A DNA stretch of 7,942 bases. Origin: a virus. Taxonomy: Duplodnaviria > Heunggongvirae > Uroviricota > Caudoviricetes. The notes beneath the pieces were generated by a model that saw only the letters and a program-made list of their open reading frames with translations, was not told the origin of the DNA and searched no databases. The stretch lies in the IMG/VR virus record IMGVR_UViG_2671181106_000001, one strand, 5' to 3'. Position numbers and translations under genes: made by a program. Shown here piece after piece: positions 722-863 of the stretch (position 1 is the first letter of the stretch; every line of letters begins with the position of its first letter).

Positions 722-769
722 ATCAGCATTATTTTGATTATCCCTGCAAGTAGACAAATACCGCCATTT

Positions 770-787
770 TGTATGAATAACGGTACA
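770..787 (+). promoter_or_regulatory. Ogr/Delta-type late-promoter activator site (TGT-N12-ACA dyad) for the tail operon promoter (P2 P_F equivalent)
   Basis: TGTatgaataacggtACA has exactly 12 nt between the TGT and ACA half-sites. It sits about 85 bp upstream of the FI start codon, compatible with the dyad being centred near -55 of a start site around 830, upstream of the FI RBS AGGAGG at 850-855. No strong -35 is present, as is typical of activator-dependent P2 late promoters. Confidence 0.5.
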
Positions 788-863
788 ACTGCGCTTAGCT
801 GTTTGTCAGGCACAATCACTTCAACATAGGGCGAAGCCTAATCCAATCAGGAGGTTCGCCACT

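Follow-up and report, generated by a model that had tools for sequence, protein, structure and literature searches.

The window, by which we mean the whole 7942-bp stretch of DNA that was analysed, is the tail-gene end of a P2-like prophage. Over nearly its full length it is 96-97% identical to Klebsiella phage Kp4845-2 and to Escherichia phages 500465-1 and Cartapus, of which 500465-1 belongs to the genus Wadgaonvirus (Peduoviridae). Of 5426 complete E. coli genomes, about 1000 contain the DNA around the candidate promoter, and E. coli STEC1587 is 100% identical to the window over 640-960. A literature search on the Cartapus/Wadgaonvirus promoter returned no publication naming Cartapus among the matches listed. 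The genes at the locus are the following:

155-721: serine invertase (Pfam Resolvase and HTH_7)
864-2036, plus strand: FI, tail sheath (Pfam Phage_sheath_1 and Phage_sheath_1C)
2046-2561, plus strand: FII, tail tube (Pfam Phage_tube, 8.8e-60)
2616-3052, plus strand: E, chaperone (2616-2918), with its E' extension (Pfam Phage_TAC_7; slippery heptamer)
3045-6122, plus strand: T, tape measure (Pfam PhageMin_Tail; annotation of relatives)
6119-6604, plus strand: U, tail (Pfam Phage_P2_GpU, 2.5e-44)
6601-7701, plus strand: D, tail/baseplate hub, the operon's final gene (Pfam Phage_GPD)
7792-7856, plus strand: 5' remnant of ogr, 21 codons, with only the first CxxC pair of a C4 zinc finger (identity to Kp4845-2; Pfam Ogr_Delta, positions 2-21 of 47)
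7857-7942, minus strand: end of IS100 (IS21 family), terminal 86 bp, 100% identical to the istB-side end (for example pPCP1 1869-1954)

The candidate promoter thus stands directly 5' of the FI-FII-E-T-U-D tail operon of a P2-like phage. An earlier note on this DNA had counted six tail genes 3' of the spacer that carries it, and Pfam names them FI, FII, E (with E'), T, U and D, arranged as in the P2 F operon; FI shares 68% identity with P2 FI and 70% with 186 J. The E/E' -1 frameshift would occur at T TTT TTG (2873-2879), the heptamer of the annotated P2 site, and the E' extension, whose ORF is annotated in relatives, extends to about 3052, into the start of T. The single operon that the note further proposed fits this gene content and order, with one qualification: after FII it probably contains a hairpin or partial terminator, as in 186. 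This candidate partial terminator, proposed from folding and position, is a GC-rich hairpin (GGCGCGG-GATT-CCGCGCC, 2573-2590, plus strand). The FII-E spacer that contains it (2562-2615) folds at -16.4 kcal/mol, comparable folding (-10 kcal/mol or lower) is found in 58 of 83 relatives, and its place is that of the 186 feature annotated as 'tI; partial terminator of pJ transcript'. The hairpin may govern how much sheath and tube is made relative to the tail proteins encoded further downstream.

On the upstream side, the mechanical ORF of the invertase begins at 110, and its start is most likely the ATG at 155 (MLIGYVRVSTNDQ), which gives a protein of 188 aa and agrees with the 567-bp annotation of relatives as well as with where the Pfam Resolvase domain begins. 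Just 5' of the gene, at window positions 73-99, lies a Hin/Gin/Cin-type crossover-like site of 26-27 bp, TTCTCCCAAACCAACGTTTATGAAAA (L001 4180-4206 / 6010-6036). In 500465-1 an inverted crossover partner is found 1.8 kb away inside the tail-fibre gene, suggesting that the tail-fibre end is an invertible segment.

Between the invertase stop codon (719-721) and the FI ATG (864) is a spacer of 142 bp (722-863). It contains, exactly where the earlier note had located it, an exact TGT-N12-ACA dyad, TGTATGAATAACGGTACA, at 770-787, centred at 778.5. The note's identification of this string as the motif of Ogr/Delta-family activators at P2/P4 late promoters agrees with the literature: TGT-N12-ACA is the consensus of the four P2 late promoters, and their activator is Ogr, a CX2CX22CX4C zinc-finger protein (PMC3931495). 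The number of such dyads in the window is not above chance, with three observed against 2.08 +/- 1.44 expected and at least three in 72 of 200 shuffles, and motif count was dropped as evidence. The two further dyads, at 2080 (in FII) and 4075 (in T), were rejected as internal promoters; they are attributed to chance because they lie inside coding sequence and have scores of -42.9 and -58.6 on the weight matrix introduced below. The equality of count and expectation, together with the adjoining invertase gene, could suggest that the 770-787 dyad is itself a chance occurrence or is bound by a different protein, for instance CRP or the invertase next to it. We regard this as highly improbable. 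CRP half-sites are spaced TGTGA-N6-TCACA, which amounts to TGT-N10-ACA and not N12. A role as invertase crossover site was also considered and rejected, since the crossover-type repeat maps to 73-99 and, in the relative, has its inverted counterpart inside the tail-fibre gene. As for chance, it is excluded by the comparative data that follow.

We compared FI loci from 80 different bacterial species and several phages, searching the 160 nt before the FI ATG. An exact TGT-N12-ACA was present in 73 of the 80 species, and its centre was always 78-85 nt upstream of the ATG (85 in the window), against a background rate elsewhere in the same loci of 0.058 dyads per 160 nt. Six of the remaining seven loci have TGT-N12-ACT, and one (L090) is without an anchor. 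This constancy is not a by-product of overall similarity: the FI upstream regions are largely unalignable and form, outside the motif positions, at least 13 clusters when grouped at 50% identity and 37 when grouped at 70%. Klebsiella phage 4LV2017 and E. coli KCJ3K291 begin to resemble the window exactly at the FI ATG, and each has its own exact dyad in non-homologous upstream DNA, 83 and 84.5 nt before the ATG, respectively. The dyad is conserved also in phages that have no invertase, and, with its partner elements, it is kept whatever sequence stands upstream. Sister sites at the other late operons point the same way. The P and O and the V operons are outside the window, and their sites were read from the 96%-identical 500465-1, which has five exact dyads in 22.4 kb, three of them in the P/O (10252), S/V (16160) and invertase/FI spacers.

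A matrix scan singled out the same position. The 82 sequences behind the 70-nt weight matrix each share at most 60% identity with the window promoter; L001, L004 and L012, the nearest relatives, were never among them, nor was the window itself, and the 60% cut-off removed L026. On either strand of the window the sole positive score is +20.8, at 769, the next best being -25.0 (mean -87.6, sd 17). In the 186 locus the top match is the annotated B-protein binding site (pJ), and on the plus strand of 500465-1 the top three mark the promoter positions of FI, V and O. P2 P_F, P_O and P_V score poorly on this matrix, which was built from the window's clade. Position and conservation, not motif count, are decisive in favour of 770-787 as the predicted activator site.

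Does the symmetry of the dyad extend inwards? Close relatives read TGTG..CACA where the window reads TGTA..TACA, but over 87 sites symmetric pairs at the inner positions do not exceed their expected frequency (in one instance 31 observed against 41.0). Extended symmetry or compensatory change inside the dyad was thus not borne out, and we take the symmetry to end at TTGT/ACAA. Within the 142-bp spacer, all five differences from Kp4845-2 fall in 764-790, in the N12 and just outside the dyad, while TGT, ACA and all of 791-863 are unchanged.

The conserved architecture reaches well beyond the dyad. Columns were counted over 85 sequences, gap-free and anchored on the T of TGT (offset 0):

Offset -1: T before TGT, 83/85
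Offsets 0 to 2: TGT, invariant
Offsets 15 to 17: ACA, with A and C invariant and the final A in 79/85
Offset 30: T, 77/85
Offset 31: G, 85/85
Offset 53: A, 85/85
Offset 56: A, 85/85
Offset 57: T, 84/85

The last three columns make up nAnnAT at +52, present in 88 of 89 sequences, which reads as a sigma-70 -10 hexamer retaining three key positions. In the window, the region before FI has the following features:

741-863, plus strand: promoter module that travels with FI in relatives (similarity borders in E. coli prophages)
770-787, plus strand: TGT-N12-ACA dyad (TTGT...ACAA, 769-788), predicted Ogr/B/Delta-family activator binding site (exact match, conservation)
799-804, plus strand: putative weak -35 region CTGTTT, its conserved part TG at 800-801 (columns +30/+31)
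822-827, plus strand: putative -10-like hexamer CAACAT, of the form nAnnAT (conserved columns)
834-837, plus strand: predicted transcription start (dyad centre plus 55.5-58.5 nt)
849-854, plus strand: FI Shine-Dalgarno AGGAGG, read from the sequence, 9 nt before the ATG at 864

The conserved TG occupies positions 2-3 of the putative -35 hexamer, which stands 17 bp upstream of the -10-like hexamer. A consensus scan of the plus strand of 722-863 gave no sigma-70 match of 9/12 or better, as expected for an activator-dependent promoter. One further pairing, TTGTCA (803-808) as -35 with CACAAT (811-816) as -10, was discarded for its incompatible spacing and its place off the conserved columns.

The transcription start was predicted by applying to the centre at 778.5 the element-to-start distances in the P2 and 186 records, whose activator sites and starts we took from the GenBank feature tables:

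P2 P_F: element centre to annotated start 56.5-58.5 nt
P2 P_V: element centre to annotated start 56.5 nt
P2 P_O: element centre to annotated start 55.5 nt
186 pJ: element centre to annotated start 57.5 nt

The resulting 834-837 would follow CAACAT by 7-10 nt and precede the FI ATG by 27-30 nt. In the distances from element centre to -10-like hexamer and to ATG the window matches P2 P_F, one of the promoters to which the earlier note had pointed for comparison, and 186 pJ; the note's placement of the dyad as a site centred near -55, with a transcript starting about 30 nt before the ATG, is consistent with this prediction, 834-837 being at or just beyond the upper end of its 825-835. Exactness of the motif is not itself the rule among the P2 promoters: P_F and P_O have TGT-N12-CCA and P_V has TGT-N11-ACA.

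The limits of the promoter can be drawn from its relatives. Some E. coli prophages with another upstream gene share the window sequence only from 738/741 onward, which is why we take 741-863 as the promoter module; in other prophages, similarity breaks exactly at 863 and a non-homologous promoter with its own dyad stands in its place. Breakpoints at 738-741 and 863 recur among E. coli and Klebsiella prophages, suggesting that the spacer between tail fibre and FI is a point of module exchange, occupied by the invertase here and by Z/fun in P2. A sigma-70-like match on the minus strand (757-728; TTGTCT, 18 nt, AATAAT), directed towards the 3' end of the invertase gene, is probably due to chance, given that the window has three such matches against 4.2 expected.

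These borders bear on the possibility that FI is expressed mainly by read-through from the invertase/tail-fibre side, or from an activator-independent promoter, the dyad contributing little. No terminator or stable hairpin was detected between invertase and dyad (700-800, z-score 0.25), unlike in some relatives, where a terminator precedes the dyad, and some low-level read-through into FI may therefore occur. As the principal source of FI transcripts it is nonetheless improbable: it would leave the architecture unexplained, a dyad and partner elements conserved whatever lies upstream, and the homologous promoters of P2 and 186 are annotated as activator dependent. An activator-independent promoter is at odds with core elements that match the sigma-70 consensus poorly.

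Taken together, the evidence leads us to read 741-863 as the P_F-type late promoter of a P2-like (Peduoviridae, Wadgaonvirus-like) prophage, predicted to be activator dependent, with a probability that we put at roughly 85%. We propose that a small C4 zinc-finger activator of the Ogr/B/Delta family would bind the dyad at 770-787, centred about 56-58 nt before the start, and would bring the host's sigma-70 RNA polymerase to a core promoter that is weak in itself (CTGTTT at 799-804 and CAACAT at 822-827). In P2, Ogr works via the alpha subunit of RNA polymerase. Transcription would then proceed from about 834-837 through FI, FII, E/E', T, U and D, the hairpin after FII probably lowering the dose of the genes downstream of it.

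Whether such a switch could operate in this particular copy depends on the activator gene. The window's ogr is identical to that of Kp4845-2, which encodes an intact 72-aa Ogr homologue, up to 7856. In the near-identical prophages the intact 72-aa protein gives a Pfam Ogr_Delta match of 5e-22 and shares 55% identity with P2 Ogr, and the Ogr_Delta protein of relatives has the cysteine spacing CX2CX22CX4C; E. coli STEC1587 has an intact ogr, adjoining ybjL. A sigma-70-like promoter (TTTGCA-16 nt-TATCAT, 7727-7754) lies between D and ogr, in the position of P2's annotated ogr promoter. In the window, the sequence switches from ogr to IS100 at 7856/7857, the very end of the insertion sequence. With ogr cut by IS100 after codon 21, activation here would need an activator supplied in trans, and the promoter is probably silent in this copy unless another P2-like prophage or a P4-like satellite gives one; the insertion predicts that the prophage cannot switch on its own late genes.

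The promoter might also be an intact but functionless relic, in a decaying prophage whose tail operon is never activated, a view to which we give somewhat less than an even chance. In its favour, the ogr remnant is without the second cysteine pair, and the junction, which is at the exact IS100 end, was absent from all complete E. coli genomes in the collection searched, so that the insertion looks recent or rare. Against it, promoter, frameshift site and all six tail genes show no damage, which suggests that there has been little time for decay, and the relic view is judged from the window alone. Ogr-family activators, moreover, cross-activate between P2, P4 and related phages. More than 30% of Enterobacterales genomes reportedly contain P4-like satellites (PMC8628076). 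A further view, that the tail operon is not simply decaying and has been kept as a module trans-activated by a co-resident Ogr or Delta, for example as a source of tails or of a tailocin-like particle, appears unlikely.

If the P_F-type reading holds, a very common E. coli/Klebsiella prophage lineage would use the classical P2 late-gene switch, which has little import beyond annotation. It does provide a positional rule for P_F-type promoters in the Peduoviridae, with TGT at 0, ACA at +15, TG at +30 and nAnnAT at +52. The kind of promoter is itself well known; of mild note is only the activator gene, inactivated by IS100.

The feature is a straightforward positional, and predicted functional, counterpart of P2 P_F and 186 pJ. 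Like the window promoter, P2 P_F lies directly upstream of FI, in front of an operon (FI-FII-E-E'-T-U-D) alike in content and order. It shares (i), a TGT-N12-NCA element, centred 82.5 nt before the ATG where the window has 85.5; (ii), a -10 of nAnnAT form, GAAAAT, one base further than the window hexamer and 7-9 nt before the annotated start; and (iii), a short leader of 24-26 nt. There are also a number of differences: the P2 promoter DNA is unalignable with the window outside the motif positions, it has CCA where the window has the exact consensus ACA, its upstream neighbour is Z/fun and not an invertase, and the downstream ogr is disrupted by IS100 only in the window. In 186, the annotated B-binding site of pJ is at an equal relative place and the partial terminator tI after the tube gene resembles the window hairpin at 2573-2590, whereas the element is TGT-N12-CCA, the activator B is under different control and the FI homologue is 70% identical. 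The likeness to the PpsR/CrtJ operators of purple photosynthetic bacteria, whose nominal string is the identical TGT-N12-ACA, is of another order: repressor, organisms and promoter context are unrelated, and we take it for a coincidence of a 6-base motif. P4 P_sid and P_LL, likened here by description and not by sequence, respond to Delta or to helper Ogr and share the activator family and the consensus element (PMC3931495); they drive satellite genes and not tail genes, and they are a precedent for promoters of this kind responding in trans to the activator of another element.
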